Assembly: GCA_963664325.2 (NCBI GenBank) | Contig: CAXXDQ010000005.1 | Span: forward strand, 128,001-192,000 | Source of the DNA: Desulfomonilia bacterium | Lineage (GTDB): Bacteria; Desulfobacterota; Desulfomonilia; UBA1062 | DNA length: 64,000 nt | Direction: 5' to 3' | In this document: positions 5,336-63,965 of the stretch, in pieces | Position numbering within the stretch: the stretch's first letter is position 1 | Layout of the letters: every line of letters begins with the position of its first letter | Position numbers and translations under genes: made by a program | The notes under the pieces: model-generated | The model's database searches: none | Told to the model about the DNA's origin: nothing | What the model saw: the letters and a program-made list of their open reading frames with translations, nothing else

Positions 5336-5339
5336 TCTC

Positions 5340-6260: not shown

Positions 6261-6547
6261 GCAGATTCGACAAAAAGACGATGCTGCTTGCCGGTATCAT
6301 CTTTATATCATCCTTTTGCCTCTGGGCCATGTTCCATGTCTGGACAAGGACGTTTGCCATGGACCTTGGATATCAGATCAGCATGGAACAGGGCATCAAG
6401 CAGGAGTTTACAAACGAGAACAAGTCGCTAAGGCTGGAAATTTCAACACTGAAGAGAACCGACAGGCTTGAATCGATTGCGCTTAAAGACCTCGGAATGT
6501 CGCCCCCGGCCCCTGAACAGGTGGTGCACCTATGGAAAAACGAGTAA
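6257..6547 (+). CDS. ftsL: Cell division protein FtsL
   Basis: Single TM plus coiled coil (ENKSLRLEISTL, RLESIA...LGM); canonical position. Confidence 0.85.
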   Translation: MSRFDKKTMLLAGIIFISSFCLWAMFHVWTRTFAMDLGYQISMEQGIKQEFTNENKSLRLEISTLKRTDRLESIALKDLGMSPPAPEQVVHLWKNE

Positions 6548-8241
6548 ACGTCGTATTCGGCATCTTCCTTTTTCTGATGGTCGCCCTGTGTACAAAGGCA
6601 TTCCATCTGCAGGTGCTGAAGGCTGAAGACGTAATATCCCGTGCATACAGGAAATTTGAACACAGCGTCAGCCTGAGTCCCAACAGGGGCATAATATATG
6701 ACAGGAGAGGGCACCCGCTTGCAATAAGTCTGGATGTCAAATCCATTGCAGCAAACCCGAGGCTGATAAATGACGATAATGAGGTGTCGATAAAACTTGC
6801 CAAGGCCCTTAATACAGACCGGTTGTTGATCAGAAAACGTCTTAAGGAAGGCAAATATTTTGCCTGGATAAAGAGGCAGGCGACTCCGGACGAGATCAAG
6901 GCTGTAGAGTCGCTCAAGATAAAGGGGATAGGGTTTTTTAACGAAAAAAAGCGGTTTTATCCCGAAAGTGAAGCCCTGTCGAATATTCTGGGTTTTGTCG
7001 GCATTGACGGAAACGGCCTTGAAGGGCTCGAGTTGCAGTATGACCATATTCTGAAAGGGGCGCCCAAACAGATAGAAGTGGAAAAGGACGGGCTCGGACG
7101 CATAATATGCGCCCAGGGCGTCAAACCTGATATCAATGACAGCAAGGATGGAAACAGTCTCGGTCTTACTATCGATAAGAGACTCCAGTACATCTCCTAC
7201 TCATTCATCAAAGATGCGGTCGCAAGCAACAGCGCCAAATCGGGTTTTGTAATAATAACAAATCCCTATACGGGCGAAATTTACTCGATGGCATCCTATC
7301 CGGGATTTGACCCGAACATAGGTTCATTCAGGAACCTTTCCGGGCACCACAACCGTGCCGTAACAGATGTCTTCGAACCGGGCTCTGTAGTCAAGCCGAT
7401 ATGGGTTGCATGGGGACTTGACACCAATTATCTGAATGCTTCCCAGAGCGTTTTCTGTGAAAACGGGGCATATAAATTCCACCACTCAATTATAAATGAT
7501 CATGAAGGCAAAGGCTGGCTTAACGTCAGCGAGGTCGTCAAATACAGCAGTAACATAGGCATGGTAAAGCTGTTCAGCCCGGTTGATGCATCGAGGCTTT
7601 ATAGCTGTTTAAAGACTTTCGGGATCGGGACCCCTACCGGCATTGACTATCCGGGCGAACCTGCAGGCCTTGTCAGAAATCCGAAAGGCTGGCGCATGAT
7701 AGACAAGGCGACCATGGCCTTCGGACAGGGATTTGCCCTGACGGGGATACAGCTTATAACCGCCTTTAACGCCCTTGTAAACGGGGGGGTAATTATAAAA
7801 CCCCATTTTATAGATTACATATCCGATCCCAAGGGCAGGACAACAAAGTATCAGCCCACGATACTGAGAAAGGCGGTATCTGATAAGACATCGGAGGAAA
7901 TCGTTGACATTATGAAGACGGTGGTGTTGAAAGGCGGCACTGCCGAGGCTGCAAACATGAACAGCTATACTGTTTTCGGTAAAACCGGCACCGCTCAGAA
8001 AGTGGATCCCCTTACAAGAAGCTATTCAAGCGGGGCACATGTCACTTCATTCATAGGCGGGATAATGGATTCATCGGGCAGACCTGTCATGACAATGCTG
8101 GTCTGCATAGATGACCCCCATCCATATTACTATGCCAGTATAGTGGCATGTCCGGTTTTTAAGAGTATCGCCACGCAGTGTACTAATATCATGGATATGC
8201 GCCCCATAATAACACTGGCAAAGGAAGGGGGACGTGGATGA
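6532..8241 (+). CDS. ftsI: Peptidoglycan transpeptidase FtsI (PBP3)
   Basis: RGIIYDR, EPGSVVK (SxxK), SSN, KTG motifs. Confidence 0.93.
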   Translation: MEKRVNVVFGIFLFLMVALCTKAFHLQVLKAEDVISRAYRKFEHSVSLSPNRGIIYDRRGHPLAISLDVKSIAANPRLINDDNEVSIKLAKALNTDRLLIRKRLKEGKYFAWIKRQATPDEIKAVESLKIKGIGFFNEKKRFYPESEALSNILGFVGIDGNGLEGLELQYDHILKGAPKQIEVEKDGLGRIICAQGVKPDINDSKDGNSLGLTIDKRLQYISYSFIKDAVASNSAKSGFVIITNPYTGEIYSMASYPGFDPNIGSFRNLSGHHNRAVTDVFEPGSVVKPIWVAWGLDTNYLNASQSVFCENGAYKFHHSIINDHEGKGWLNVSEVVKYSSNIGMVKLFSPVDASRLYSCLKTFGIGTPTGIDYPGEPAGLVRNPKGWRMIDKATMAFGQGFALTGIQLITAFNALVNGGVIIKPHFIDYISDPKGRTTKYQPTILRKAVSDKTSEEIVDIMKTVVLKGGTAEAANMNSYTVFGKTGTAQKVDPLTRSYSSGAHVTSFIGGIMDSSGRPVMTMLVCIDDPHPYYYASIVACPVFKSIATQCTNIMDMRPIITLAKEGGRG

Positions 8242-9686
8242 GGGCATCAACTCTCACAGGCATGATTCCAGGCGCAGTCCTGAAAGGGTCTGATGCCGAG
8301 ATTTCAGGGATAACGGACGATACAAGGAAGATTAATGCAGGCGCTGCTTTTATTGCCCTTAAAGGGACTGTCACCGATGGACACAAATATATAAAGACAG
8401 CCCGGGAAAACGGTGCCGGCTTGATCATCTGCAATGCGGGTTCCGCCCCAGAGCAGGCTGCATTGCCGGTTATTGAAGTACCTGATACACGGGATGCACT
8501 AAAAACAATCCTTCCGGCCCTTTTCCCATCTGCCGGGAAATTGACACTTGCCGGCATTACCGGAACCAGCGGGAAGACTACGACTTCATACCTGCTTGAA
8601 TCCATTTTCAAGGCCGCGTGGAGAAATCCCGGCTTAATCGGGACCATTGAAATAAGATACGGAGGAGAAAGCATTCCTGCGAACGTGACTACCCCGGGTC
8701 CGGTCGAACTCTTCGGCATGCTCGATGATATGTGCAAAAAGGGCGTAGATGCCTGCATAATGGAGGTGAGTTCGCATGCCCTTGACCAGGGACGGGTCGA
8801 CGGTCTTATGTTCGATGCCGGCATATTCATGAATCTCTCACATGAGCATCTGGACTATCATAAGGACATGCAGGACTACCATAACGCTAAAAAAAGGCTT
8901 TTTACCGATTACCTCAGGGGCAGGGCTGTCATAAACATCGATGATGCGGCAGGCATGAGCATCAAGACCGAAATTCCGGATGCATTGAGTTTCGGAAATT
9001 CAATAGATGCGGACATAAGACCGCACTCGGTTAGAACGGATGAAGGTTCAATGATAATAAGCCTTGACACCCCCAGGGGCAGATTCGAACTGGCAAGCAA
9101 TCTTCTCGGACGTTTCCAGGTCTATAATATCATGGCTGCAACCGGGGCCGCCATGAGCCTTGGCATCGATACGGTGGCCATAATCGAAGGGATCGCAAAT
9201 CAGAGGTATGTGCCGGGACGCATGGAACCTGTGCCGAACAGCAAAGGGCTGAGAATCCTGGTCGATTATGCGCATAAACCCGAGGCGCTGGAGAATGCGC
9301 TTAAAGCGGCAAGGTCGCTTTCAGAAGGCAAAGTCCATACAATCTTCGGTTGCGGAGGAGATCGTGACAGGACAAAAAGGCCTTTGATGGCCGCCATTGC
9401 AGAAAAATATTCGGATACAGTTATCGTTACTTCGGACAATCCAAGGACAGAGGACCCGAATGCAATTATCAGGGAGATACTTGCAGGATTTACCAAAGGG
9501 TACGATCCGATAGTCGAACCTGACAGGGCCAAGGCCATCAAAATCGGTGTTGCACTGATGGAGCCGGAGGACATACTCATTATTGCAGGCAAAGGCCATG
9601 AAGACTATCAGATCATAGGGACAAAGAAGTATCCGTTTGATGACCGGACAATATCAAGGAAAGCTGTTCTGGAGGTTATGGCATGA
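8238..9686 (+). CDS. murE: UDP-MurNAc-tripeptide synthetase (mDAP-adding)
   Basis: GITGTSGKTT, MEVSSH, DYAH, DNPR, GKGHE. Confidence 0.96.
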   Translation: MRASTLTGMIPGAVLKGSDAEISGITDDTRKINAGAAFIALKGTVTDGHKYIKTARENGAGLIICNAGSAPEQAALPVIEVPDTRDALKTILPALFPSAGKLTLAGITGTSGKTTTSYLLESIFKAAWRNPGLIGTIEIRYGGESIPANVTTPGPVELFGMLDDMCKKGVDACIMEVSSHALDQGRVDGLMFDAGIFMNLSHEHLDYHKDMQDYHNAKKRLFTDYLRGRAVINIDDAAGMSIKTEIPDALSFGNSIDADIRPHSVRTDEGSMIISLDTPRGRFELASNLLGRFQVYNIMAATGAAMSLGIDTVAIIEGIANQRYVPGRMEPVPNSKGLRILVDYAHKPEALENALKAARSLSEGKVHTIFGCGGDRDRTKRPLMAAIAEKYSDTVIVTSDNPRTEDPNAIIREILAGFTKGYDPIVEPDRAKAIKIGVALMEPEDILIIAGKGHEDYQIIGTKKYPFDDRTISRKAVLEVMA

Positions 9687-11047
9687 GGGGCAGACTGATT
9701 GAAGCTGCTGAAATAACAGGCGGCACACTTCTGGAAGGCAGCCCCGAAACGCCTTTTTCAGGAATATCGACCGACTCAAGAATGGTGACAAAGGGAGAAC
9801 TCTTTATTGCGCTCAAGGGAGAGAATTTTGACGGCCATGACTATGTGGGACAGGCTGTTGACAGGGGAGCGGCGGCGGCTGTTGTCGAAAGAAGAACCGA
9901 TGCCAGGGGTTTGAACCTCATCCTTGTCGGAGATACACTTGCGGCGCTCGGGGAACTGGCTGCGCATAACAGGGCCTCATATAATGCAAAAGTAATCGGA
10001 ATCACCGGTTCTGCAGGCAAAACCACGGTCAAGGAGATGATTGCCTCCATCCTTGCCATAAATGGAAACGTCCTTAAAACCCAGAAAAATTATAACAACC
10101 TCATCGGCGTGCCGATGAGGCTCTTCGACCTGAAAGAAGACCACGATTTTGCGGTTATCGAGATGGGGACGAATGCACCCGGGGAAATAGAGAGACTTGC
10201 CAGGATGGCAAAACCGGACATATCAGTTCTTACAGGTATTATCCCGGCCCACCTCAAAGGACTTGGAAGCATGGAAGGCATCATCAATGAAAAGCAGGCT
10301 ATCTTTGAGCACACCTCAGAAGCCGCGGTGTTTGACCCGAATGGCGAATATACAAAAAATGTTGTTGTGCCAGTAAACCTTGAAAAAGTCACCTTTTCTT
10401 TAAAACAGCCCGCTGACGTTCTCCTTTCAGATATTCACAGAAAGGACCTCTCAGGGACGGTATTTACTGCGATACTAAAAGAGAGAAAAATAAGGATCAG
10501 GGTCGGTCTGCCCGGAATGCACAATGTCCAGAATGCCCTAGCTGCCTGTGCTTGTGCCCTGGCGCTGGGGATTGAACCGGAACAGATACAGGCGGGGATT
10601 GAAAATGCATCCTTCCCCGGGATGCGCTCCGAGATAGTGGTCTCTGATGGCCTTACGATAATAGACGACAGTTATAATGCAAATCCCGGCTCGATGAAGG
10701 CTGCGCTCGATGTCCTGTCTGCTGCGCCGCATTCGGTCAAAATAGCAGTCCTGGGGGACATGCTGGAACTCGGTGATGATGCTCAGTTCTGGCACAAAGA
10801 ACTTGGGAAATGGGCCGCCGAAGCAAAGATCAACCATCTTATCATAACAGGGGAAATGTCCTGGGCGGTTAAAGAAGCTGCCTATAATGCAGGACTTGAT
10901 ATAAGGCAGATCACGGTGGCCGACGATATAGAGGGCATAAAGAACGCCCTTTCGCTGAGGACATTGAAGGACGCTATCATTCTGGTTAAGGCCTCCCGCT
11001 CGCTCAAGCTGGACCGTGTCGTGGCGCATCTCAAGGAGGCGGCCTAA
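9683..11047 (+). CDS. murF: UDP-MurNAc-pentapeptide synthetase
   Basis: GITGSAGKTT, NYNNLIG, DDSYNANP, LGDMLELG. Confidence 0.96.
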   Translation: MRGRLIEAAEITGGTLLEGSPETPFSGISTDSRMVTKGELFIALKGENFDGHDYVGQAVDRGAAAAVVERRTDARGLNLILVGDTLAALGELAAHNRASYNAKVIGITGSAGKTTVKEMIASILAINGNVLKTQKNYNNLIGVPMRLFDLKEDHDFAVIEMGTNAPGEIERLARMAKPDISVLTGIIPAHLKGLGSMEGIINEKQAIFEHTSEAAVFDPNGEYTKNVVVPVNLEKVTFSLKQPADVLLSDIHRKDLSGTVFTAILKERKIRIRVGLPGMHNVQNALAACACALALGIEPEQIQAGIENASFPGMRSEIVVSDGLTIIDDSYNANPGSMKAALDVLSAAPHSVKIAVLGDMLELGDDAQFWHKELGKWAAEAKINHLIITGEMSWAVKEAAYNAGLDIRQITVADDIEGIKNALSLRTLKDAIILVKASRSLKLDRVVAHLKEAA

Positions 11048-12124
11048 ATGCTCTATCATATCCTCTTTCCTCTCCATGTGTACCATTCCGTTTTCAATGT
11101 CTTTAAATACCTTACGTTCAGGAGCATTTACGCGACCATCACGGCGCTGCTGATAGGGCTGCTTCTGGGCCCCTGGTTTATAGAAAGGCTCAGAAGAATG
11201 AGCTTCGGCGAAAGGATAAGCTCCTACACGCCCGGGCACAACAACAAGGCGGGCACCCCGACGATGGGCGGGGTGTTCATCGTATTCACGATCGTCTTTT
11301 CAGCCCTCATGTGGGTTGACCTTTCAAACAAGTTCGTATGGCTGGTCACGTTCATAACAATAGTCTTCGGTTCATTGGGTTTTATAGACGATTACGTAAA
11401 GACCAGGCGGGGCAACATGAAGGGGCTGCCCGGAAAGCTGAGGCTTGCAATCGAATTTGCCGCCGCCGGTTTTGTCGGATATACGCTGACCACCATCCCG
11501 GGTTTCAGCACTATAGTTACCGTGCCTTTTTTTAAAAACGTGCACTTTGACCTGGGCATGTTCTTCATTCCCTTTTCAATGCTGGTTATCGTAGGTGCTG
11601 CAAACGCAGTCAACCTGACAGACGGGCTTGACGGGCTTGCAATAGGGCCGAGCACCATAGCCGCTGCGACTTATCTGCTGTTCGCCTACCTTACGGGCAA
11701 CTTCAAGACCTCCAGCTACCTGCAGATACACTATATACCGGGAGTGGGCGAACTGAGCGTGTTCCTTGGGGCAATGGTGGGCGCCGGCATGGGATTTCTC
11801 TGGTATAACGCCTATCCGGCCCAGGTGTTCATGGGCGATGTCGGCTCCTTGAGCCTGGGCGGCATACTCGGCACCGTCGCAGTAATAACGAAGCAGGAGA
11901 TGCTGCTGGTTGTAGTCGGCGGCATCTTCGTGATGGAAGTAATGTCGGTAATTCTCCAGGTGGGATTCTTCAAGTTCACAAAAGGCAAACGAATATTCCG
12001 CATGGCGCCCATACACCACCACTTCGAGCTCAAGGGATGGCCTGAACCAAAGATTATCGTGAGGTTCTGGATCATTTCCATCCTGCTGGCGATGCTGGCT
12101 ATCTCCACGCTTAAGCTGAGGTAG
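11048..12124 (+). CDS. mraY: Phospho-MurNAc-pentapeptide translocase
   Basis: [35 protein letters not shown]. Confidence 0.97.
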
Positions 12125-41144: not shown

Positions 41145-43466
41145 CTAAATATTGTCACCAACAAAAACAGTTTTTATCTTGGTTATCTCGGACGGCAGCA
41201 GTTTGTCTTCTCCGAATGTCTCTATAAGCAGTGCAGGCGATATCGTCCTTCCGCCGACAAAGCGTATTGTAAGCGCGGCCTCATCGTTCTGTCCAAGGTA
41301 ATCATTCACAACAAGTTCGGCCTCGCCTTTTCTGATCGCTGCACCTTCGCCGAGTTTGAGCCTTAAGGGCCGCATCAGCCTGAAGGTATAGGCGGCGACC
41401 TGTCTGAGCCTGCCCTTCATGCATGATTTGATGGCCATGCCTTCAGGCATATGGCCTGAGAGCGTTTCGGCCGCCTCCTCTGCCGGAAGGTCTTCTGCGA
41501 GGTCAAGCTGCATGTATTCGTCTTCCGATGCGATACCCAGGGATACCGGCGGAATGAGGGTAAGCCTCATGGCCGGGCTGAAGCCTTCGGAATACGAGGC
41601 CCTCAAACCCGAGCGCCTCACAGCCCGCTTGATCATCTCGATAAAGTCCCTGTTGCCGATCAGCGATAAAGCCCCCGTCTTTGAAAAGCCAATCACATAG
41701 GGATACCGGCCCTGCGTCAGTGGCGGGAAGAGGTCGATCTTTTCAGCAGGCCCCCTGATAATATTATTAATATCACCCTTGCAGGCGCCGCAATCGAGGC
41801 ACGCGTCTTCCCTGCAGTCAGGGCTCTGAACAGCGTTGTATGCGAGTTCCCTTTCGCGGATGAGGAAATCCCTGTTTATTCCCATATCCATGAATTCCCA
41901 GGGCTGGGCTTTATTTATATCTCTTTCCATCAGATACTCGCCGGGGTCCAGGCCCGCTCTTTCAAAGGCGCCGGTCCATGCCTTGAAATTGAATGTGTCC
42001 GACCAGCCGTCGAGGTAGGCCCCCAGCCTGAACGCGTTTTCCGTTACGCCGGCAAGCCTATCGTCTCCCCTTGAAAAAACGCCTTCCAGAACCGAGAACT
42101 CGGGATCGGTCCACTTGAGGCTGATTCTCCTGTCGCGGAGCTCCCTCTTGAAGTATCCGAGCATGTCATGAAGCCTTGCTGTTGCGATCTGGGCTTCCCA
42201 CTGGAAGGGCGTGAACGTCTTCGGGATGTAGGTGGACACGCTCACATTGACCCCGCCCCTGAATGCGTTGGCGATCTTTCTCGACAGCCTGACTATAGCC
42301 TCGACATCCGCATCCGTTTCGGTGGGCAGTCCTATCATGAAATAAAGCTTGATCAGCTTCCAGCCCTGCTTTCTTATGATCGAAATGCTTCGCAGGAGCT
42401 CGTCTTCGGTATTGCCCTTGTTTATCACGGCCCGCAGCCGCTCGGTCGCCGCCTCGACCGCCAGCGTGAAACCGGGCTTTTTGACGGATGAGATGATGCC
42501 GGCCATCCTTTCGGTCATGCCCTCGACCCTCATGGACGGCACGCCCAGGGAAATCTCGCGTGACGGGCAGTTGAGCGATTCCATTATATCGGCCAGGTAG
42601 CTCAGGTCGGTTATGGAAAGTGCGGTCATGGCCAGGTTGTCATAGCCGGTTGTTTTAAGCCCCTGCCTGAACGTGCTGATAACGGAATCGAAAGACCGCT
42701 CCCTGTAAGGCCTGTAAATCATTCCGGCCTGGCAGAAGCGGCATCCCCTGGTGCAACCCCTGGCAACCTCCACACCGAGCCTGTCGTGCACTATGCTTAT
42801 ATTGGGAACGATGATGTCTGCCGGGAACGGGTGCTTATCGAGGTCCGGCAGAATCCTGCGTACCGGCCTGGCGCCTGAGCCCGGCCTGTAGACGCCTGCA
42901 ATCCCTGACATGGCGCGGATCCGCTCGTCCCTGTCGTTCACAGCCAGGCATATCTGAGCCATTTCAGCCACCACCTCTTCGCCGTCACCGATGACGATCA
43001 GGTCGAAGAATGGCAGGTATGGCGAGGGGCTGGAAGTACAGGTCCCGCCTGCAATGATTACGGGGTCGGTCTTTTTCCGTTCTGCCGCATAAATGGGAAT
43101 GCCGGAAAGGCTGAGCATTCTGAGGACCGTCGTATACGACAGTTCGTGCATGAGCGAGAAACCCACGATGTCAAATTTTCCGAGCGGTCTTTTCTCCTCC
43201 AGCGAAAAAAGGGGTTCTCTATTCTTTTCCAGGAGCGAGGCCATATCGGGCCAGGGCGCGAACACGCGCTGGGCCCACACTCCCCTGATGGAATTAAGGA
43301 TATGGTACAGTATCTTCTGGCCCGAATGCGACATGCCGATTTCATAGGCGTCAGGAAAGGCCAGGGCGAAACGGACTTTGACTTCAGCTTCCGGTCTGCC
43401 GGCCTGGTTTACCTCGCCGCCCGTATAGCGGCCGGGTTTCAGAACCTTTTCGAGGCCTTTTATCAT
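41145..43466 (-). CDS. TIGR03960-type radical SAM protein fused to a TIGR03936-type radical-SAM-linked domain
   Basis: KPGRYTGGE, FPDAYEIGMS, RGCTRGCRFCQAG (CxxxCxxC), KLYFMIGLPTET; C-terminal YSEGFSP..R...LG..S.DE. Confidence 0.88.
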   Translation of the reverse strand: MIKGLEKVLKPGRYTGGEVNQAGRPEAEVKVRFALAFPDAYEIGMSHSGQKILYHILNSIRGVWAQRVFAPWPDMASLLEKNREPLFSLEEKRPLGKFDIVGFSLMHELSYTTVLRMLSLSGIPIYAAERKKTDPVIIAGGTCTSSPSPYLPFFDLIVIGDGEEVVAEMAQICLAVNDRDERIRAMSGIAGVYRPGSGARPVRRILPDLDKHPFPADIIVPNISIVHDRLGVEVARGCTRGCRFCQAGMIYRPYRERSFDSVISTFRQGLKTTGYDNLAMTALSITDLSYLADIMESLNCPSREISLGVPSMRVEGMTERMAGIISSVKKPGFTLAVEAATERLRAVINKGNTEDELLRSISIIRKQGWKLIKLYFMIGLPTETDADVEAIVRLSRKIANAFRGGVNVSVSTYIPKTFTPFQWEAQIATARLHDMLGYFKRELRDRRISLKWTDPEFSVLEGVFSRGDDRLAGVTENAFRLGAYLDGWSDTFNFKAWTGAFERAGLDPGEYLMERDINKAQPWEFMDMGINRDFLIRERELAYNAVQSPDCREDACLDCGACKGDINNIIRGPAEKIDLFPPLTQGRYPYVIGFSKTGALSLIGNRDFIEMIKRAVRRSGLRASYSEGFSPAMRLTLIPPVSLGIASEDEYMQLDLAEDLPAEEAAETLSGHMPEGMAIKSCMKGRLRQVAAYTFRLMRPLRLKLGEGAAIRKGEAELVVNDYLGQNDEAALTIRFVGGRTISPALLIETFGEDKLLPSEITKIKTVFVGDNI

Positions 43467-53903: not shown

Positions 53904-54083
53904 TCAACTAGCGTTAATTACTTCACATGCGTCGCACCAAGACGACCACGCATAACATCCGGTGTCGTGTTCATTAAAGCCTATCGATGCATCATCAGTC
54001 TTGCACGCAAGCAGTATCGCTTCCTGCTTAGACGGGCGACAAAGGATTACTAATTCCGGGCGATTCCATTGTTTTTTAGCCAT
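53904..54083 (-). CDS. Candidate RiPP precursor, family 1 (59 aa)
   Basis: GGAGAG RBS; MAKKQWNRPELVILCRPSKQEAILLACK...C......C..C.....S; leader homologous to 57575-57760. Confidence 0.75.
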   Translation of the reverse strand: MAKKQWNRPELVILCRPSKQEAILLACKTDDASIGFNEHDTGCYAWSSWCDACEVINAS

Positions 54084-55995: not shown

Positions 55996-57354
55996 ATGGA
56001 AAGAAAGAAGATACTGAGGTTTAAGGATCTCGCGCTTTTTACATTCTGCGCGATATTCGGGTTGGAGGCCATTGCAGCCTCCGCCGCTATCGGTCCATCG
56101 GCCATCTTCTGGTGGCTGTTATGCCTCGCCTGTTATTTTATACCGTTCGGAATGATTGCTGCAGAGCTGGGCTCGACCTATCCCGAGCAGGGCGGGCTTT
56201 ACGTCTGGATCAAAAAAGCGATGGGGCGCCGGTGGGCGGCCCGGAGCGTCTGGTATTACTGGATATCCCTGCCGGTATGGCTGCCCGCAATCTATATCGC
56301 CATCGCGGATATTTTAGGGCACATCTTTTTCCCCGGCATCACCTTCTGGCAGCAGATCGCAATAAGCGTCGTGCTGATATGGATCGCCCTCGGAATCAAT
56401 CTGTGTCCCCTGAACGCTTCAAAATGGATACCCAACATAGGCTCCGTCGCGCAATTTAGCATTGTGGCGGGAATGATCGCAACCGCTGCGCTGTTTTTCC
56501 TGAAAAACGGGCGCATGGCCAACCGGATCACCCTTGCGGAAGTAATGCCTAACATGAACGCCGCGCTTGTCTTCATCCCGATGATCATCTACAACCTCCA
56601 GGGCTGCGAACTTGTCTCATCGGCTGCCGGCGAGATGAAAAATCCTGCCCGCGACATCCCCCGGGCGCTTATTTTATGCGCCTTCGTAATCGCGGTGCTG
56701 TACTTGATGACGACCTTCTCGGTCTGGGTCGTGATTCCGGTCAATGAGATCAACGTGGCGAGCGGCGTGCTTAACGTATTCACGAACGCACTTGACGATA
56801 ACATCGCGAAGCCCTTTATCACGGTTGCAGCCGGTCTCCTGATATCGTGCGCTTTCTTTGCGGGAATCATCGCCTGGAATCTTGGGCTGAACCGTACCAT
56901 CGCCGAGTCCGCGAACAACGGGGATATGCCGGGGATCCTGGGGAAGATGAACAGGAACATGGCCCCGCTGGGGGCGTCGGTTGTATCCGGGATCATCTCC
57001 ACCGCAGTGATTCTTATTTATGGATTCATCGCGAGCGATGCGGCCGAACTGTTCTGGCATACGGTCTCGTTCAGTCTTATCGTTCAACTGTTTTCAAATC
57101 TGATGCTGTTCCCGACTTTTATAATCCTGCGGAATAAAGATAAGGGTGCTCCCAGGCCTTTCAGTGTGCCCGGGCCCGATTGGTTAGCGATTTTTCTGGC
57201 CTTCCTGGCGGGCATATTTGTACTGGCCGCCATTGTCATACTTATTATCCAGCCGGGGCAGGATATAGTCAGGGTAACCATGCCGATCATCGCCGGAGTG
57301 ATAACAGTCGTCATCGCGGGCGAGATTTTGTTATCCCGTTGTAAACCAGAGTGA
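55996..57354 (+). CDS. APC-family amino acid/polyamine permease
   Basis: AELGSTYPEQGGLYVW, GCEL....AGEMKNPARDIP, about 12 TM; start reassigned to ATG 55996. Confidence 0.88.
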   Translation: MERKKILRFKDLALFTFCAIFGLEAIAASAAIGPSAIFWWLLCLACYFIPFGMIAAELGSTYPEQGGLYVWIKKAMGRRWAARSVWYYWISLPVWLPAIYIAIADILGHIFFPGITFWQQIAISVVLIWIALGINLCPLNASKWIPNIGSVAQFSIVAGMIATAALFFLKNGRMANRITLAEVMPNMNAALVFIPMIIYNLQGCELVSSAAGEMKNPARDIPRALILCAFVIAVLYLMTTFSVWVVIPVNEINVASGVLNVFTNALDDNIAKPFITVAAGLLISCAFFAGIIAWNLGLNRTIAESANNGDMPGILGKMNRNMAPLGASVVSGIISTAVILIYGFIASDAAELFWHTVSFSLIVQLFSNLMLFPTFIILRNKDKGAPRPFSVPGPDWLAIFLAFLAGIFVLAAIVILIIQPGQDIVRVTMPIIAGVITVVIAGEILLSRCKPE

Positions 57355-57372
57355 CCCATGAGAGGACGCCAA

Positions 57373-57544
57373 GGGCATCAGGCGGAATGACAGGTCCGGG
57401 AAACGGGCCGACAGGCCTTCCTTGATGCGCTGCCCTATCGCAGTTATGTCGGACAGGGCCATATCCGAGCCGAAAACAAGCTCCAGCTCAACAAAGCGCG
57501 TATTGCCTCTGCAGCACGTGTAAACCAGCCCGATATTCTCGAAA
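57373..57544 (-). pseudogene. Relic 3' end of the CDF transporter gene (direct repeat of 63045-63216)
   Basis: 172-bp ungapped alignment, about 26 mismatches by manual count; encodes FENIGLV...ELELVFGSDM...FRLMP. Confidence 0.9.
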
Positions 57545-57574
57545 AAGAGAGGGCTCAGAGAGGAAGACAAGATA

Positions 57575-57760
57575 ATGGATGAAAGCAGGAAGAAATTGTG
57601 GATGAAGCCGGAACTGACCATACTGGTGCGCAACAAGCCTGAAGAGGCGGTGCTTGCTGCATGCAAAGGCAGTATTGGCTCAACGTCATTGGCTGTTCAA
57701 TACAATAACTGCCGTTTTAACGAATGCTCAAACTATTGCACGGATCAGGTAACATCTTAA
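57575..57760 (+). CDS. Candidate RiPP precursor, family 1 (61 aa)
   Basis: MDESRKKLWMKPELTILVRNKPEEAVLAACK...C....C...C.....S; homologous to 53904-54083. Confidence 0.78.
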   Translation: MDESRKKLWMKPELTILVRNKPEEAVLAACKGSIGSTSLAVQYNNCRFNECSNYCTDQVTS

Positions 57761-57889
57761 GCCGATCTCTCAAGAACCGGAACCAGGGAAAGAGCAATAA
57801 GTAAAAGGCATTTGTGATCGACAGGACATGGTGACTGGCCTTAATTGTCTCTTTTCAAGGCATGACACCTTGTTCGCATGAATTGACGC

Positions 57890-58123
57890 CTAAAATCCGA
57901 TTCCTGTTATATCGCAATAGATCGCAGCAATGTTTCCATTAATCACGCAAAAATCGGCTGAATTGCCATTACTCGTACACATATTTCCTGCGGTATTGCC
58001 TGTTGAACAGGAATTCACATCACCGCTGCCGGGACCAAAACAATCGCCTTTGCCGCTTTTGTAATCATAGAGGTCATATGCATATGGTTTTTCATATATC
58101 GGCTTCTGATTCTTTTCTTCCAT
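57890..58123 (-). CDS. Candidate RiPP precursor, family 2, copy B (77 aa)
   Basis: AAGGAG RBS; MEEKNQKPIYEKPYAYDL leader; five Cys spaced 10-11 residues apart in a Gly/Asn/Ser-rich core. Confidence 0.8.
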   Translation of the reverse strand: MEEKNQKPIYEKPYAYDLYDYKSGKGDCFGPGSGDVNSCSTGNTAGNMCTSNGNSADFCVINGNIAAIYCDITGIGF

Positions 58124-58188
58124 TACCCTCTCCTTTGGAAGTGTTTCTATTATGGTATCAAGATTGCGCAGTGTAATCAATACATCCG

Positions 58189-58280
58189 TCATATCATGGC
58201 GCAGAGCCTGTCTCTGAACGCACCGCAATTCATATCCTTTTTCTCGATTGCCGTAACAGCCGATTTCTCCTTGTTATTTT
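58189..58280 (-). pseudogene. Relic 3' end of a GT4 glycosyltransferase gene
   Basis: Encodes SAVTAIEKKDMNCGAFRDRLCAMI* versus GT4 end AAFAAVEKQDASYRSFSDWLYAMI*; offset 414 bp. Confidence 0.8.
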
Positions 58281-58300
58281 GCCGTGTTCGTATGAACTTA

Positions 58301-58537
58301 TTACACAATTCCGCTTCCTGGATTACAACTTGACGGAGCGCCGTTTCCATTATCAATACAAATTCCGCTGTCCGAATTGCCATTACTCAAGCAATTACCC
58401 AGGGCGTGACCGCCTGTTGAACAGAAACTTCCATTGTTGCTGCCGGATTTACAATCATCACCCTTACCGATTTTATAATCGTTGAGATGATATACACACG
58501 GTTTTTCATATGCCGGCTTCTGGTTCTTTTCTTCCAT
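58301..58537 (-). CDS. Candidate RiPP precursor, family 2, copy A (78 aa)
   Basis: AAGGAG RBS; MEEKNQKPAYEKPCVYHL leader; five core Cys spaced 10-11 residues apart. Confidence 0.8.
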   Translation of the reverse strand: MEEKNQKPAYEKPCVYHLNDYKIGKGDDCKSGSNNGSFCSTGGHALGNCLSNGNSDSGICIDNGNGAPSSCNPGSGIV

Positions 58538-58602
58538 TATTTTCTCCTTCGGCGGTGTTTCTATTATGGTATCAAGATTACACGATGGAATCAATACATC
58601 TG

Positions 58603-59799
58603 TCATATCATTGCATAGAGCCAGTCACTGAACGAGCGGTAGCTTGCGTCCTGCTTTTCAACGGCCGCAAATGCCGCTGCCTTTGATATCCCGACGGCAC
58701 TTTCATAATTGACGGGATCGTCAAGATTCCTGATATGCCTGATGTATTGCATGATCGTACGGGCATGGTATTTCATGTTCACGAAGAAATCAGGGGCTTT
58801 CCTTGAATCTTCGTTTACTTGAACCAGAAAACCCTCAGGCGGCATCTCCTCTCTTATGCCGCCCGAGTCGTTTGCAATAACCGGCAACCCGCTGCATATG
58901 CCCTCGACAATAACCCGCGAATACGGCTCCTCCCAGAGAGAGGGGACCAGAAGTATTCTTGTCATTTCATAAATCCTGCGCACATCCATGTCCCATGGCA
59001 TGAAGGTTACGTTTGAAAGATTGAATCCTTCAGGGTTGACCACCGTGCCGGGTTTCATGACCAGAAGAAACTTTTTGTCCTGAAGATTGCTTGCAATGTT
59101 CAGAAATATTCCCAGGCCTTTCGCAGGAGAGCCGTTTATCATAGTGATATATTCCCCCGGCGCAGCGGTGGGGGCAAAATTTTCAAGGCTGATCTGCGGA
59201 ATGAGGTTAATGCTGTTCTGAGAGTAATACGATCTGAATTTATCCTTTAGAAAACTTCCGGTGCATATGAATTTGAACCCGGGTGCGATTTTTCTGAACA
59301 TTCCGGTATATTTATTGAAACCTTCCTCAAATATCTGCTGATCGCTGATGCGGTGCAGCCTGAGGGGCGAGAAGTTCAGGCTTGCCTGCATCGAGAATAT
59401 GTCGGAATTAAGGGTCAGCGTGGCATCGGTTTTCCTGTCTGACAATATATTGCCCCACAAAACCGAAATCCTGTCGATTCTGTCTTTGATATTGTGATGG
59501 TATGCCTGGTTTATATCAAGACCGGATAAGAAGCATTCGAATGAAAACGGGTATCCTTCGAGATGAAATTTGATTTTTCCGTTTCCGGGCAAAACAACCC
59601 GGCCGCCGATGCTCAGGATATCCCTTGTCAGCCTTTCATGATTAAAGCCTTTATCGGCAAGCCACAAAAAGGAGACATCAAATCCATCCTGTGAAAGCTT
59701 TTTAAGGATGGTCAGAACGCTCAATGTCCCCCCTGATGAATTCCTTATGTCAAGATTGCCGGTCATCAGACATGTAATGCGCTTTCCAATCATTATCAC
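58603..59799 (-). CDS. Glycosyltransferase family 4
   Basis: GG at N-terminus, KGL, LLVPSLWEEPYSRVIVEG...GLPVIA..SGGIRE. Confidence 0.88.
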   Translation of the reverse strand: MIMIGKRITCLMTGNLDIRNSSGGTLSVLTILKKLSQDGFDVSFLWLADKGFNHERLTRDILSIGGRVVLPGNGKIKFHLEGYPFSFECFLSGLDINQAYHHNIKDRIDRISVLWGNILSDRKTDATLTLNSDIFSMQASLNFSPLRLHRISDQQIFEEGFNKYTGMFRKIAPGFKFICTGSFLKDKFRSYYSQNSINLIPQISLENFAPTAAPGEYITMINGSPAKGLGIFLNIASNLQDKKFLLVMKPGTVVNPEGFNLSNVTFMPWDMDVRRIYEMTRILLVPSLWEEPYSRVIVEGICSGLPVIANDSGGIREEMPPEGFLVQVNEDSRKAPDFFVNMKYHARTIMQYIRHIRNLDDPVNYESAVGISKAAAFAAVEKQDASYRSFSDWLYAMI

Positions 59800-60013
59800 C
59801 CAATCCTGTCAGTCATTTACTTCAAGACGATATTTTTAGCGGATGAAAATACAGTAGCAAATAGTTCATGGCCAGTCCAACCATAGTTCCCGAAGACGGT
59901 TTTTATTTGCGATGGAGTATCCGGCCGCGTCGAATCCCGGGACCGGGAACGCTTGACTTTCCAGCTGTCATCGGTCACTATAATCTAATATTTTATTTTT
60001 ATAAACATGTGAG

Positions 60014-61798
60014 GTGTTCATCATGATGCGAAAGCTGACAATATTTGCACTGATCATTCCGGCCTTAATTTTTGCCGCCTGCAAAAGCGGGATCAGGGTA
60101 TGGACTGAGCCGTCCACAGAACGGGTCATGCAGTATTCGGTTTCAAAAAAGATCGTCCCGGCGGAAATCTATGCAGCGCACAACGATTACGAATCCTTCC
60201 AGATAGTGATAAACGGCGGTCTCAACGGCCTTACCGGCGTGAATGTAAGTCCGGGCGATCTGACCGGACCCGGCGGCGCGGTCATCGCCAAGGAAAACAT
60301 TGCGCTTTACAGGGAATTTTATGTCCATGTCAGCAAGCCTTCATTTCTATTGGGCGTTGTCGGGGATCTCAGGCTTCCCGGGAACTACCCGGACCCTCTC
60401 ATCCCGTTCACAGACCCGTACGATCCCGCCCATCCCGCTGTGGGTGCGCCTTTCAAAGTGGACAAGCTCAAGAATCAGCCGGTATGGGCCGAGGTCTATA
60501 TCCCTGAAGGCATACCCGCAGGGGAATATATAGGCACGATGACGGTGAGCGCTGACGGTATGAAGCCGGTTGAAATTGAAGTAAAGGCGACAGTCTGGGA
60601 TTTCAGCATCCCGAAGGAAAGGACCGTCTCGACCGCCTATGGCCTTTATGACAGCACCCCGGATAAATTCCATGCAGCAGGTTCGCTTGCACAAACCCAT
60701 TATAATTACGAACTGGAGCTCCACAAGCACAGACTTGATGTAACGAGGATCACGGGCCTTGCATCGAATCCTTTCAGGTTCGGCAGCGACGGCCATCTGC
60801 TCCCGGTGGACTGGACCGAGTACGATTCGATAGTCAGCCCCAGGCTCGACGGCAGCTACTATGGCGACGGCATTGGCATGCACAAGCTGAACGCAGGCTT
60901 CTTCCGCCCCGGAAGCGGCGGGTGGCTTGAAACCGGTATCACCGACGATCAGTACAAGGAAGCAGCACGGGAGTTCGCCCGCCACCTGAAGGAAAAGGGA
61001 TGGATGGACAGGGTTTACGTTTACTGCCAGGACGAACCGTTCTGGAACAATGTCCCGTATGAAGATCTGGCGTATGACATAAGGCTCATGCTCGAGGCCG
61101 ACCCGGACTGGAAAGGCGCATTCATGGACACAAACTGGTGGGTCAGGGAGCTCGACGGCCTGATAGACATCTGGTGCCCCGAAGTCACGAAGTATGAAGG
61201 CTGGCTGACCGCCGGCATCCTCGATTTCGCCGGAAGGGATGAATACGACAATATGCGGGCCAGAGGCGAAAACCTCTGGTTCTATGTATGCAACGCGACC
61301 GTGCCGCCGTATGCCGGTTACGATATAGACACCATGATAGCTTACGAGCCCCGCATCATGATGTGGGGCGCCTGGTATGAAAAGGCGGTGGGCTTTCTTT
61401 ACTGGTGCACGACCGCCTGGAAGGAGGTCAACCCGTGGGAAGATCCTCTCGCTTTCCCGATATGCCCGAGAAACGGCGATGGTTTCCTTTTCTATCCCGG
61501 CGATCATAACGGGACGGCCGCGCCCGTGGGCTCCCCGGAAGAGGTCTCAATCAACGGGCCGGTGACTTCGATCAGGCTTAAGCAGACTAGAGACGGCCTT
61601 GAAGACTGGGAGATGTTCAAGATAGCCGCCAGTATCGCAGGCGAGGACGCCGTAAGAGATGCGGTTTCAAAGGCATACACGCAGCTCGGGACTGCGCCGG
61701 TTCTGGGGATATGGAATCCTCTCAGCCCGCCGTGGACGCATGATGGAAAGGTCATCGAAGAAGTGAGAAAAGAAGTCGCTTCTTTGATATGCAGGTAA
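60014..61798 (+). CDS. DUF4091-containing glycoside hydrolase-like lipoprotein (GH123-like)
   Basis: Lipobox FAAC, NDYESFQI, YPDPLIP, QPVW.EVYIP, DEP, W.YVC, GFLYW, GDG.L.YPG, SIRL...RDGLEDWE. Confidence 0.75.
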   Translation: MFIMMRKLTIFALIIPALIFAACKSGIRVWTEPSTERVMQYSVSKKIVPAEIYAAHNDYESFQIVINGGLNGLTGVNVSPGDLTGPGGAVIAKENIALYREFYVHVSKPSFLLGVVGDLRLPGNYPDPLIPFTDPYDPAHPAVGAPFKVDKLKNQPVWAEVYIPEGIPAGEYIGTMTVSADGMKPVEIEVKATVWDFSIPKERTVSTAYGLYDSTPDKFHAAGSLAQTHYNYELELHKHRLDVTRITGLASNPFRFGSDGHLLPVDWTEYDSIVSPRLDGSYYGDGIGMHKLNAGFFRPGSGGWLETGITDDQYKEAAREFARHLKEKGWMDRVYVYCQDEPFWNNVPYEDLAYDIRLMLEADPDWKGAFMDTNWWVRELDGLIDIWCPEVTKYEGWLTAGILDFAGRDEYDNMRARGENLWFYVCNATVPPYAGYDIDTMIAYEPRIMMWGAWYEKAVGFLYWCTTAWKEVNPWEDPLAFPICPRNGDGFLFYPGDHNGTAAPVGSPEEVSINGPVTSIRLKQTRDGLEDWEMFKIAASIAGEDAVRDAVSKAYTQLGTAPVLGIWNPLSPPWTHDGKVIEEVRKEVASLICR

Positions 61799-63008: not shown

Positions 63009-63965
63009 TTATCGCGAAGCGGACAGGTCCGTGACAGCGGTCACGGGCATCAGGCGGAAGGTCAGGTCCGGGAAATGGGCAGACAAGCCTTCTTTGATGC
63101 GCTGTTCTATTGCGGCTATATCGGACAGGCTCATATCAGAACCGAAAACCAGCTCCAGCTCTATGAAGCGCGTATTGCCGCTGCGGCGCGTGCAGACCAG
63201 CCCGATATTTTCGAAATTGGCGTATTCGCGCATTATGACCTGCAGTATTTTCATCTGGTCTTTCTCCGGCAGGGGGAGGTCGATGAGAGACTTGAAATTC
63301 TTCACGACGAGACGGCTGCCGTTTACCAGCATATAAGAGGCCAGCAGTACCGTCACAACAGGGTCGATCATCATGGCAGGCCCGCGCATGTTCATCGATA
63401 TGAGAACCAGCGCCAGCCCCAGTGCCGCCATCACGCCCGTATCCACCACGGCTGATATCCTGTAGTTGATCCTGTAGGAACCCATTAGCGATGTCTGCCG
63501 CCGGTTCCGGCGTATTATCCATGAGGTAAATACAAATAGTCCCAGGGAACGGAGAAGAGATATCCCCATGGGTATCTGGCTCAGACCGAAGAGTATGTTT
63601 GCCGGAGGGTTGAAAAAGCGGATTACGGCTGAATAGATCAGGAAACAGCCCGTCGGCATAAGCAGGGTGCCGTATAAAAGACTGGTGAAGTTCTCAAGTT
63701 TGCCCACGCCGTAAGGGAATGTGAAGATGTTTTTTCTGAGCATGATGCGGATGGCCGCGAAGGCGAAAATATTGACGATGATTGACAGGCCGTAGTCAAC
63801 CGCCACTGCGAAGATGGTCAGGGAATCCGAAACGAGACCGATGGCGATAAACAGGACAGTGAGCGGAATAAGCGTTCCGACTCCCCAGTACACCACGAGG
63901 CGGAGGTCGTTCAGCTGCCGGGAAGATTCGTCTTGAAACTTCGTATTGGTATGGTTTTCAGGCAT
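63009..63965 (-). CDS. Cation diffusion facilitator (CDF) family transporter, atypical
   Basis: FPYGVGKLEN motif, six TM, C-terminal TRRSG..RFIELEL dimerisation domain; GGAG RBS. Confidence 0.8.
   Translation of the reverse strand: MPENHTNTKFQDESSRQLNDLRLVVYWGVGTLIPLTVLFIAIGLVSDSLTIFAVAVDYGLSIIVNIFAFAAIRIMLRKNIFTFPYGVGKLENFTSLLYGTLLMPTGCFLIYSAVIRFFNPPANILFGLSQIPMGISLLRSLGLFVFTSWIIRRNRRQTSLMGSYRINYRISAVVDTGVMAALGLALVLISMNMRGPAMMIDPVVTVLLASYMLVNGSRLVVKNFKSLIDLPLPEKDQMKILQVIMREYANFENIGLVCTRRSGNTRFIELELVFGSDMSLSDIAAIEQRIKEGLSAHFPDLTFRLMPVTAVTDLSASR

Follow-up and report, generated by a model that had tools for sequence, protein, structure and literature searches.

Candidate satellite precursor peptides for a putative SynChlorMet variant with a glycosyltransferase in a Desulfomonilia bacterium

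RESULTS

Two tandem Cys-repeat peptide genes follow a glycosyltransferase gene.

The window analyzed here, a stretch of 64,000 nucleotides on one contig (C5) of a Desulfomonilia bacterium, contains two genes for Cys-repeat peptides (pepA and pepB) on the same strand as a gene for a GT4-like glycosyltransferase (GT). Our preferred reading, held with moderate confidence, is that pepA and pepB serve as satellite precursors for a SynChlorMet variant that includes a glycosyltransferase and in which a satellite module consists of the GT followed by its precursor or precursors, apart from the core maturation genes. The conserved link between GT and peptide is the new part of this work; a sequence-only reading of the same DNA had described the peptides and missed the GT. 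The features of the locus are as follows.

57890..58123, minus strand: pepA, a 77-aa Cys-repeat precursor-like peptide (stop codon in coordinates)
58124..58188, minus strand: conserved non-coding stretch 5' of pepA, with a Shine-Dalgarno sequence and a CATAAT -10-like hexamer
58189..58265, minus strand: remnant of the 3' end of the GT gene, duplicated with the peptide gene
58301..58537, minus strand: pepB, a 78-aa Cys-repeat precursor-like peptide (stop codon in coordinates)
58538..58602, minus strand: spacer of 65 nt from the GT stop to the pepB start, with the same conserved Shine-Dalgarno and -10-like letters
58603..59799, minus strand: GT-B, GT4-like glycosyltransferase of 398 aa, directly 5' of pepB

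The peptides were previously described as having near-identical leaders followed by five regularly spaced cysteines, and both parts of this description hold. The pepA leader spans approximately residues 1 to 27 and precedes a core with Cys at positions 28, 39, 49, 59, and 70 (gaps of 10, 9, 9, and 10 residues), while the pepB core has Cys at positions 29, 39, 49, 60, and 71 (gaps of 9, 9, 10, and 10). All of the units listed earlier (CSTGN, CTSNGN, and CVINGN; CKSGS, CLSNGN, and CIDNGN) were found in the two peptides; a sixth Cys of pepB, at position 14 in the leader, had escaped that description. Gaps that are all 9 or 10 have a probability of approximately 2.6e-5 for five randomly placed Cys in 77 aa. 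Aligned as open reading frames with their in-frame upstream stretches, the two copies are 60% identical (BLASTP E value, 1e-33), and none of the five core Cys or of the repeat Gly residues has been lost despite 40% divergence. Strong AGGAG-type Shine-Dalgarno sequences lie within 25 nt 5' of both ATG codons (AAAGGAGAGGG before pepA and GAAGGAGAAAATA before pepB). Translation of a longer precursor from an in-frame ATG overlapping the stop codon of the GT gene (MTDVLI...) was set aside because the congener genome G001 lacks such an ATG and every copy has an AGGAG-type site just before MEEK. The dN/dS ratio (NG86) is 0.1 to 0.3 in the leader in 10 of 10 pairs of peptide copies and 0.3 to 1.45 in the core of the same pairs, with dS between copies of 0.3 to 1.4, in agreement with the earlier remark that the Cys are kept while the rest of the core diverges. 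These patterns in the sequence indicate that pepA and pepB are real genes under leader-biased purifying selection.

The flanking DNA records a local duplication. A three-copy DNA alignment shows that the letters of 58124..58188 are common to pepA, pepB, and a further copy on contig C4, and that 58189..58265 corresponds both to the final ~70 nt of the GT gene and to the sequence 5' of the C4 copy; by blastn, 57932-58220 matches 58343-58634 at 75% identity. As read from these alignments, the unit that was duplicated to give pepA and the C4 copy includes the 3' end of the GT gene. The C4 copy has lost the GT and has a GTG start codon. The 547-aa protein encoded 5' of it is a hydrolase, rejected as a relative of the GT (best E value, 1.2). 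An ATTACA-17-CATAAT promoter-like sequence at 58177-58149 is a consensus match only, and a scan of 57300-60100 for promoters and terminators returned 4 promoter-like and 3 terminator-like sites, which is not above shuffled sequence.

Such a history could also mean that the two copies are decaying and no longer serve a function. The tandem duplication carried with it a dead piece of the GT 3' end, the islet is strain-variable and lies beside a duplicated gene end, and related copies are broken by an in-frame TAA in both the congener G002 and the first precursor of the maturation cassette described below. However, the pepA and pepB frames are intact behind strong Shine-Dalgarno sites, the five core Cys and repeat Gly are retained at 40% divergence, leader dN/dS stays at 0.1 to 0.3 while dS reaches 0.3 to 1.4, and the GT upstream is intact and 77 to 78% identical to congener GTs. 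We therefore regard decay as quite unlikely.

The peptides belong to a large precursor family that co-occurs with ScmE.

A profile (A1) was built from the seven intact paralogs of the genome, including pepA and pepB, so that the scores of the window peptides on it (121 bits for pepA and 107 bits for pepB) are circular. Independent support for their membership comes from the other matches of the profile, because these adjoin ScmE genes. The A1 search retrieved 725 peptide clusters at 50% identity, with a family repeat unit of C-x3-G-[SN]-x-A-x3. Among 151 family representatives, Cys gaps of 10 (n = 329) and 9 (n = 178) predominate over gaps of 11 (n = 29) and 8 (n = 26). In pepA, the Y-E-x-P motif precedes the first core Cys by 18 residues, the modal distance of the family (90 of 135), and the family features tested for were all found: Y-E-x-P about 18 residues before the Cys, at least four C-x3-G-[SN]-x-A-x3 units, and a G-x-G tail. 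The window peptides are 34 to 37% identical to the peptides encoded in the genome's own SynChlorMet cassette, and the residues invariant across both sets include Y10, E11, P13, L18, G26, C49, and C60. The family is poorly annotated: Pfam and NCBIfam models gave no match to pepA at E values of ≤10, a word-based homologue search with pepB returned only itself, and the cluster names of 10 family representatives were "hypothetical protein" or none. Clusters found via the homologue P0019 are likewise unnamed, one with a 26% label of PF27846 (tSAM_targ_Cxxx_rpt).

The curated precursor model of the system, ScmA (TIGR04252; 49 positions, whole-protein cutoff of 35 bits), had no match at E values of ≤10 in pepA, pepB, the C4 copy, or both intact cassette precursors. 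The sole paralog of the genome to score on it, at C7:899789, reached 12.7 bits, and in other genomes, two peptides encoded next to SCM-like genes reached 28.6 and 30.1 bits. In a sample of 401 genomes of the phylum, an ScmE-like gene is present in 34, of which 21 reach the ScmE cutoff, and the ScmA cutoff is reached in none, so that curated ScmA covers only a sliver of the precursor family.

Peptide and enzyme co-occur across genomes. Among 41 relatives, the peptides were found in 6 genomes, all 6 with ScmE, and in 0 of 32 ScmE-negative genomes. Of the 15 peptide-positive genomes in the 401-genome sample, 13 also have an ScmE-like gene, and a peptide was found in 2 of 367 ScmE-negative genomes, which are 62% and 88% complete. 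These counts overstate the case because related genomes are not independent. In this sample, 7 of the 12 other double-positive genomes have their best peptide match no more than 3 kb from ScmE, as do G001, G002, G003, and G035. The A1 profile is narrow, scoring in just 13 of the 34 ScmE-positive genomes and missing the peptide of the Saganbacteria locus described below.

The genome holds one SynChlorMet cassette, on another contig.

The sequence-only reading had compared the peptides to substrates of SynChlorMet-type cassettes and suggested searching the genome for ScmC, ScmD, ScmE, and ScmF. That search found exactly one cassette, on contig C7, with its own precursors and the order ScmD, precursors, ScmD-like, ScmE, ScmF, ScmC. 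ScmC (TIGR04249) scores 153.7 bits, above its cutoff of 125, and is fused to a signal-peptidase-like domain. ScmE (TIGR04250; 391.7 bits), ScmF (TIGR04251; 313.6 bits), and ScmD (TIGR04248; 54.4 bits) take these models as best matches below their cutoffs of 400, 400, and 100 bits, respectively; the ScmE cutoff is reached in the congeners G001 and G002 (402 and 411 bits). The comparison is thus borne out, but in trans: the cassette precursors align with the window peptides and lie beside ScmC, ScmD, ScmE, and ScmF, whereas pepA and pepB do not. The genome has 8 SPASM and 4 PqqD matches, none of them on the contig of the window, and therefore any maturation of pepA and pepB would take place in trans. 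The only radical SAM gene among the open reading frames of 38.5 to 64 kb is at 41145-43466 and is of the Radical_SAM_N2/DUF2344 type. The fourth PqqD gene, on contig C8, was rejected as a part of the system; it belongs to an apparent lasso-peptide cluster.

Both loci have metal transport genes as neighbors. ZnuA/ZnuC/ZnuB-like genes immediately precede the C7 cassette in 4 of 4 genomes of the genus, and the window islet, which is strain-variable, is inserted at a cation-diffusion-facilitator (CDF) gene whose duplicated end adjoins it. Together with five or more Cys per core, these neighbors could point to unmodified small Cys-rich peptides that bind or buffer metal. Against this, the Znu adjacency was not seen at three other loci (L056, L057, and L149), the CDF surroundings vary among congeners, the association across the family is with ScmE-type enzymes, PqqD proteins, and leader peptidases, and a conserved leader with a variable core is the pattern of enzyme-processed precursors. 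We consider unmodified metal-binding peptides highly improbable, while a mature, enzyme-processed product with a metal-binding role may be compatible with maturation.

A small glycosyltransferase clade travels with Cys-repeat peptides.

The GT directly upstream of pepB matches only generic GT4 domains in Pfam (PF13692, 1.4e-10; PF00534, 1.1e-8), and its matches to PDB profiles are limited to the C-terminal sugar-nucleotide domain. From the sequence and its invariant columns, we read EEPYSRVIVE as the EX7E-type motif of the enzyme. An AF2 model of modest confidence (mean pLDDT, 63.7) finds GT4/GT5 and generic GT-B enzymes in Foldseek, and no RRE-like part was detected in the GT (hhalign probability, 0.2).

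Orthologues at 77 to 78% identity are present in 2 of 3 congeners, each with a peptide of the same family (Family-2) ~70 nt downstream and with non-syntenic flanks, while the third congener (G003) lacks both members of the pair. The pair recurs on a metagenome contig (L148). At a locus of a Saganbacteria metagenome-assembled genome (L070), a PqqD gene and a GT gene (39% identity) are followed 3 nt later by a gene for a 66-aa Cys peptide; an ScmC-like gene is nearby, no radical SAM gene is present within the 7.3 kb visible, and a true ScmE (550 bits) is encoded elsewhere in that genome, on a separate contig. A sediment contig (L149) carries a complete cassette in the order PqqD, ScmE, ScmF, GT (40% identity), peptide, ScmC, peptidase, ABC exporter, in which the GT start abuts the ScmF stop. 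The link between GT and peptide is thus counted in three lineages; the 39 to 40% homologues P0158 and P0160 fall outside this context count.

Among 5.8 billion proteins searched, 14 matched the GT at E values of ≤1e-5, and 7 of these are full-length members of the clade (at least 39% identity). Around 77 other GT-related loci (L071 to L147), mostly partial and more distant GT matches, the A1 profile found no peptide at E values of ≤1. In 146 genomes of the Saganbacteria phylum, there was one further GT match only, a partial one (G561; E value, 4e-34) that adjoins a B12-radical SAM gene and lacks a Cys peptide. On the strength of sequence and gene context, we propose that the GT is a tailoring enzyme for the peptides encoded downstream.

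It is also conceivable, though improbable, that pepA and pepB are SCM-type precursors matured in trans while the GT is a cell-envelope enzyme that merely adjoins them. The generic family matches fit this explanation, an orthologue is annotated in one source as "glycosyltransferase involved in cell wall biosynthesis," L149 has ordinary GT genes 5' of its cassette, and a GH123 lipoprotein gene is the divergent neighbor of the GT in the window. Yet enzymes of the same clade (39 to 40% identity over the full length) are encoded directly 5' of a Cys-repeat peptide in three lineages unrelated to one another, and in L149 the gene has ScmF, whose stop abuts its start, on one side and the precursor on the other. 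Among congeners, the GT and the peptide shift jointly to non-syntenic sites and are both missing from G003, the duplication unit of pepA and the C4 copy includes the GT 3' end, and the clade is tiny.

Alternatively, GT and peptide might form an autonomous module that follows glycocin-like logic, its product being glycosylated and disulfide-bonded or with free thiols, without radical SAM cross-links. The lack of SPASM and PqqD genes on the window's contig, the movement as a two-gene unit, and the stretch of L070 seen with no radical SAM gene are in line with this idea. However, ScmE/F is present in every GT-clade genome or contig that could be checked (G000, on C7; G001; G002; G428; and L149), the leader has the motif and spacing that cassette-encoded peptides use throughout the family, and a GT that has no RRE-like part would need another protein for leader recognition. 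An autonomous module is accordingly an unlikely explanation.

DISCUSSION

A proposed route for maturation in trans.

If the satellite reading of pepA and pepB is right, their maturation may proceed in four steps. The leader motif KP-x-Y-E-x-P...L would be bound by the ScmD/PqqD-type proteins encoded on C7. The radical SAM/SPASM enzymes ScmE and ScmF would then join every Cys to a partner inside its own repeat, most likely by forming thioether rings, and the adjacent GT4-like enzyme would add one or more sugars to the Ser/Thr/Asn/Cys-rich core. Finally, the fusion of ScmC and signal peptidase from C7 would remove the leader. More tentatively, the small and scattered GT-B clade could represent a dedicated SynChlorMet tailoring enzyme, and the genus could keep one core cassette together with mobile satellites that borrow its enzymes in trans and acquire new precursors when a gene is duplicated in place, as for pepA and pepB.

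The substrate family, at 725 clusters, extends far beyond what curated ScmA captures, and its regular C-x3-G-[SN]-x-A-x3 unit narrows the possible sites of cross-linking. A specific GT clade travels with Cys-repeat peptides in three distant lineages and, if the proposal is true, would define a glycosylated subclass of radical-SAM-cross-linked ribosomal peptides (RiPPs); a single peptide of this kind with both glycosylation and radical SAM cross-links would combine these modifications in a new way. Precursor genes dispersed from their maturases are missed by adjacency-based genome mining tools. The two-gene module of 1.9 kb and the five-gene cassette are small enough for reconstruction in a laboratory host.

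Comparison with known systems.

The closest known system is SynChlorMet (TIGR04248 to TIGR04252), whose models are the best matches of the C7 genes, with ScmC over its cutoff, and whose C7 precursors share the leader motif and Cys-repeat core of the window peptides. The differences are that the window peptides lie outside the cassette and that the catalogued set of five Scm models does not include the GT. Our literature search, with subscription journals outside its scope, found no experimental paper on the SynChlorMet cassette or its product, nor one combining HPr kinase/HprK, PqqD, radical SAM, and a precursor peptide or RiPP.

Ranthipeptides and sactipeptides resemble the system in their short leader with PqqD-like binding, SPASM maturases, and repeated Cys units; in freyrasin (PapA/PapB), the rings are formed in repeated Cys-x3-Asp units. 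The PapB, AlbA, and StsB models are weaker matches of ScmE and ScmF, and ScmE scores 70.2 bits against a PapB cutoff of 340, so that the maturase is not of the PapB family. Unlike the freyrasin type, SynChlorMet combines a pair of radical SAM enzymes with an HprK-like ScmC and a signal-peptidase-like domain, and its repeat, C-x3-G-[SN]-x-A, lacks a conserved Asp acceptor.

Glycocins of the sublancin/SunS type likewise pair a ribosomal Cys-containing peptide with a dedicated glycosyltransferase. Their enzymes are GT2/GT-A enzymes of the SunS type, whereas the window enzyme is GT-B/GT4-like by Pfam and by structures and does not have the SunS-type GT2 character. Glyco_rSAM_CFB (TIGR04157) is a GT4-like family of Bacteroidota found beside radical SAM/SPASM peptide systems. 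The window GT reaches 18.2 bits on this model, over residues 275 to 322 only, against a cutoff of 400, and the window peptides are of a different family from those of both glycocins and TIGR04157 systems. Accessory glycosyltransferases in Bacteroidales radical SAM clusters have been reported in a genome mining study (PMC10352776).

The GT4 protein O-glycosyltransferases GtfA and SdgB share the fold class of the window GT and appear among its Foldseek matches (4pqg [GtfA] at rank 19 and 7vfo [SdgB] at rank 28). Their TM-scores, on a modest model, are 0.41 to 0.46, whereas GlgA, MshA, and BshA score better, and the sequence relation is limited to the sugar-nucleotide domain. GtfA and SdgB modify Ser residues of low-complexity repeats, in Ser-rich and Ser-Asp repeat proteins, respectively. 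By analogy, they provide a precedent for a GT4 enzyme that would act on a Ser/Gly/Asn-rich repeat peptide.

Cys-repeat peptides of the window and their paralogs

Two precursor-like peptides with Cys repeats, pepA and pepB, are encoded downstream of a GT4-like glycosyltransferase gene (GT).

Peptide and glycosyltransferase genes of the window
57890-58123, minus strand: pepA, open frame, 77 aa
58301-58537, minus strand: pepB, open frame, 78 aa
58603-59799, minus strand: GT, 398 aa; 65 nt separate its end from the pepB start (Pfam PF13692, PF00534)

The two leaders (27 residues) are near-identical, with one additional Cys in that of pepB, and each core carries five Cys, with 10, 9, 9, and 10 residues between them in pepA and 9, 9, 10, and 10 in pepB. 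For five random Cys in 77 residues, the chance that all are spaced 9 to 10 is p ~2.6e-5. The peptides with their in-frame upstream stretches share 60% identity (E = 1e-33), and an AGGAG-type site lies a few nucleotides 5′ of both ATG codons. No Pfam or NCBIfam model matched pepA or pepB, even at E ≤ 10.

The window covers positions 128001-192000 of contig C5. A search of the genome (4.3 Mb, 9 contigs) identified a third close copy on contig C4 (58% identity, GTG start) as well as less similar copies at C7:899786, C3:991408, and C7:479417-480641, where three lie in tandem. Five of the eight family members lie outside the C7 maturation cassette described below, including two with unrelated neighbors.

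Distant orphan family members
L012 9786-10013 (C7:899786): beside a HlyD-fragment ORF and an epimerase gene
L013 9408-9626 (C3:991408): beside GNAT and gamma-glutamyltranspeptidase genes

Shine-Dalgarno sites precede every intact copy, and alignment of the seven intact paralogs (A1) displays the invariant columns M1, Y10, E11, P13, L18, G26, G32, S33, G42, A45, C49, G53, C60, and G64. A single TAA interrupts an otherwise conserved frame in the first cassette precursor (L011 10396-10641) and in the GT-linked copy of the congener G002 (L052 8721-8924), and both look like recent pseudogenes. Whether pepA and pepB are likewise decaying duplicates is a rival explanation on which the substitution pattern bears. 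Among pepA, pepB, the C4 copy, and the copies of congener G001 and metagenome contig L148, NG86 dN/dS of the leader (only 26 codons) is 0.1 to 0.3 in 10 of 10 pairs (dS, 0.28 to 1.45), and that of the core, also of few codons, is 0.3 to 1.45, with Cys and repeat Gly kept. This is the pattern that would be expected of an enzyme-recognized leader joined to a freely varying core.

A SynChlorMet-type cassette on another contig

The sequence-only reading had likened the repeats to the peptides expected of SynChlorMet-type cassettes. That comparison is borne out for the genome, in which the C7 tandem precursors sit within such a cassette with all genes on one strand, but not for the window, as none of the 8 SPASM and 4 PqqD matches found in the genome is on its contig, C5.

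Maturation cassette on contig C7 (locus L011)
10796-11083: PqqD; TIGR04248 (ScmD), 54.4 bits (cut-off 100)
Between both PqqD genes: three precursors; no model
8999-9277: second PqqD-like gene; TIGR04248 (ScmD), 21.7 bits (cut-off 100)
7906-9012: radical SAM/SPASM; TIGR04250 (ScmE), 391.7 bits (cut-off 400)
6743-7909: radical SAM; TIGR04251 (ScmF), 313.6 bits (cut-off 400)
5199-6728: 509-aa protein; TIGR04249 (ScmC), 153.7 bits (cut-off 125), plus a signal-peptidase-I-like domain (60.6 bits)

In 4 of 4 genomes of the genus, the cassette is immediately preceded, in the same orientation, by genes similar to ZnuB, ZnuC, and ZnuA (L011 11228-13854, G000:C7:481228-483854 in this genome); none was seen beside the cassettes of loci L056, L057, and L149. 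These neighbors may point to a link with metals or reflect local synteny only. The fourth PqqD gene is on contig C8, beside an Asn-synthase homolog and an HprK-like gene, in an apparent lasso-peptide cluster (L157 4777-8349, G000:C8:79777-83349) predicted to encode a cyclase of 627 aa, the PqqD protein of 96 aa, and a kinase of 355 aa, with a small ORF between; IS200- and DDE-type transposases flank it.

The peptide family and its association with ScmE

Searching 1.84 billion sequences with the A1 profile retrieved 725 representatives of 50%-identity clusters at E ≤ 1e-3 (48 at E ≤ 1e-10). The best 150 of these are nearly all 60 to 130 aa long, with three of 153 to 183 aa. In these 150 and pepB, Cys-to-Cys gaps are 10 (329 times), 9 (178), 11 (29), and 8 (26); the 10-gap unit has G at +4 in 94%, S/N at +5 in 75%, and A at +7 in 68% (D in 15%), and in 90 of the 135 members with a Y-E/x-x-P motif, that motif precedes the next Cys by 18 residues. 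Ten family representatives that were looked up are nameless or "hypothetical protein."

That pepA and pepB are plain metal-binding peptides is another rival explanation, and the distribution of the family bears on it. Among the 41 nearest genomes, peptides (E ≤ 1e-3) occur in six (this genome, 3 of 3 congeners, and 2 of 16 genomes of a second family), all of which belong to the nine with ScmE (E ≤ 1e-40); the 32 ScmE-negative genomes gave no peptide match. Across the phylum, 401 evenly sampled genomes (peptide, E ≤ 1e-5; ScmE-like, E ≤ 1e-60) included 15 peptide-positive genomes and 34 with an ScmE-like gene (21 of them over the cut-off), and 13 of the 15 had both. Completeness of the remaining two is 62% and 88%, and other members of their genera have ScmE. 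In the 12 double-positive genomes other than this one, no more than 3 kb separates the best peptide match from ScmE in seven, and the two are on different contigs in five. These counts are descriptive and carry no statistical test, because the genomes are mutually related and the A1 profile is narrow. The curated precursor model TIGR04252 (ScmA) is very narrow, and its 35-bit cut-off was reached in none of the 401 genomes; its two best matches (28.6 and 30.1 bits) are similar-looking Cys-repeat peptides beside ScmC-like and radical SAM genes.

Pairing of glycosyltransferase and peptide across genomes

GT homologs are rare (14 proteins at E ≤ 1e-5 among 5.8 billion) and include the window protein itself, three at 77 to 78% identity, and three full-length at 39 to 40%. 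The profile of the GT clade matched solved structures over the sugar-nucleotide half only (e.g., BshA and GlgA), and structural matches of the AF2 model, which has a mean pLDDT of 63.7, are GT4/GT5-type GT-B enzymes, with the protein-Ser glycosyltransferases GtfA and SdgB at lower ranks (TM, 0.4 to 0.5). No RRE-like part was found in GT.

That GT is an incidental neighbor of the peptides is also a rival explanation, on which its other genomic settings bear. Orthologs are present in G001 and G002, in which a related peptide lies ~70 nt downstream (intact, 68 aa, in G001; the TAA-bearing copy in G002); these two loci lack all other genes found at 52-64 kb of the window. L148 carries the same pair, while no ortholog was found in the congener G003, where the cassette peptide is the only one. 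The G001 locus is syntenic with the C4 locus (glutamine synthetase, MR_MLE enzyme, peptide, and two amidohydrolases), where GT is reduced to its last ~65 nt. A GT 3′ remnant also stands upstream of pepA, as at C4; pepA is thus the product of a tandem duplication that took in the GT end and the peptide together.

More distant loci hold the pair as well. In a Saganbacteria MAG (L070), a PqqD-like gene is followed by GT (39% identity) and, 3 nt past the GT stop, a 66-aa peptide that has three Cys units behind a KYEQPELIDI leader. An ScmC-like gene is close by, and a different contig carries an ScmF-like gene and a true ScmE (550 bits). A GT-only pathway is a further rival explanation, on which a sediment contig (L149) bears: its order is PqqD, ScmE-like (42% identity to the C7 protein), ScmF-like (37%), GT (40%), a 59-aa Cys peptide, ScmC-like, an S24/S26-type peptidase, and an ABC exporter, with the ScmF stop abutting the GT start and a second peptide gene 4.6 kb further. 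Of the 80 loci retrieved by the GT profile, only those of the two congeners gave an A1 match; A1 overlooked the L070 peptide, which was found by eye. When 146 genomes from the Saganbacteria phylum were scanned for GT, there was one further match, partial and without a peptide.

A probable islet around the peptides

The 3′ end of a CDF transporter gene (63009-63965, minus) is duplicated as a fragment (ORF 57331-57666; 57370-57544 versus 63042-63216, 84.6% identity). The copies bracket ~5.5 kb holding the peptides, GT, a 220-aa ORF, and a GH123-family glycoside hydrolase gene with a lipoprotein-like N-terminus (60014-61798, plus), which diverges from GT at a distance of 214 nt and was not found next to GT in G001 or G002. 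In G002 and G003, the two congeners in which it could be compared, the sequence flanking the CDF gene is different, and the segment resembles a strain-variable islet.

The genome also has nine matches to another precursor-like family, unrelated to the first, with the leader KKLWMKPELTILVR..PEEAVLAACKG. Orphan copies lie at 57575-57760 (plus), beside pepA, and at 53973-54080 (minus), 3.5 kb off; the home cluster (L150, G000:C3:852001-870000) has at least four matches with three radical SAM/SPASM genes, an S24-peptidase-GNAT fusion, and an ABC exporter. Two distinct radical SAM systems thus appear to have orphan precursors side by side in one islet.

Proposed satellite precursors and comparison with known systems

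On the best-supported reading, pepA and pepB would be satellite precursors that serve a SynChlorMet pathway of a GT-bearing variant type. The C7 PqqD proteins would read their leaders, ScmE and ScmF would cross-link the Cys repeats, most likely as thioethers if they resemble other SPASM maturases of peptides, the local GT would add a sugar to the peptide, and the ScmC-peptidase fusion would trim the leader.

Our literature search found no paper naming the SynChlorMet cassette or its models. Genome mining of Bacteroidales has described radical SAM clusters with accessory glycosyltransferases, reportedly of families other than those here (PMC10352776). The SynChlorMet kind is already database-defined, and what is new is the link to GT, examined here at independent loci.
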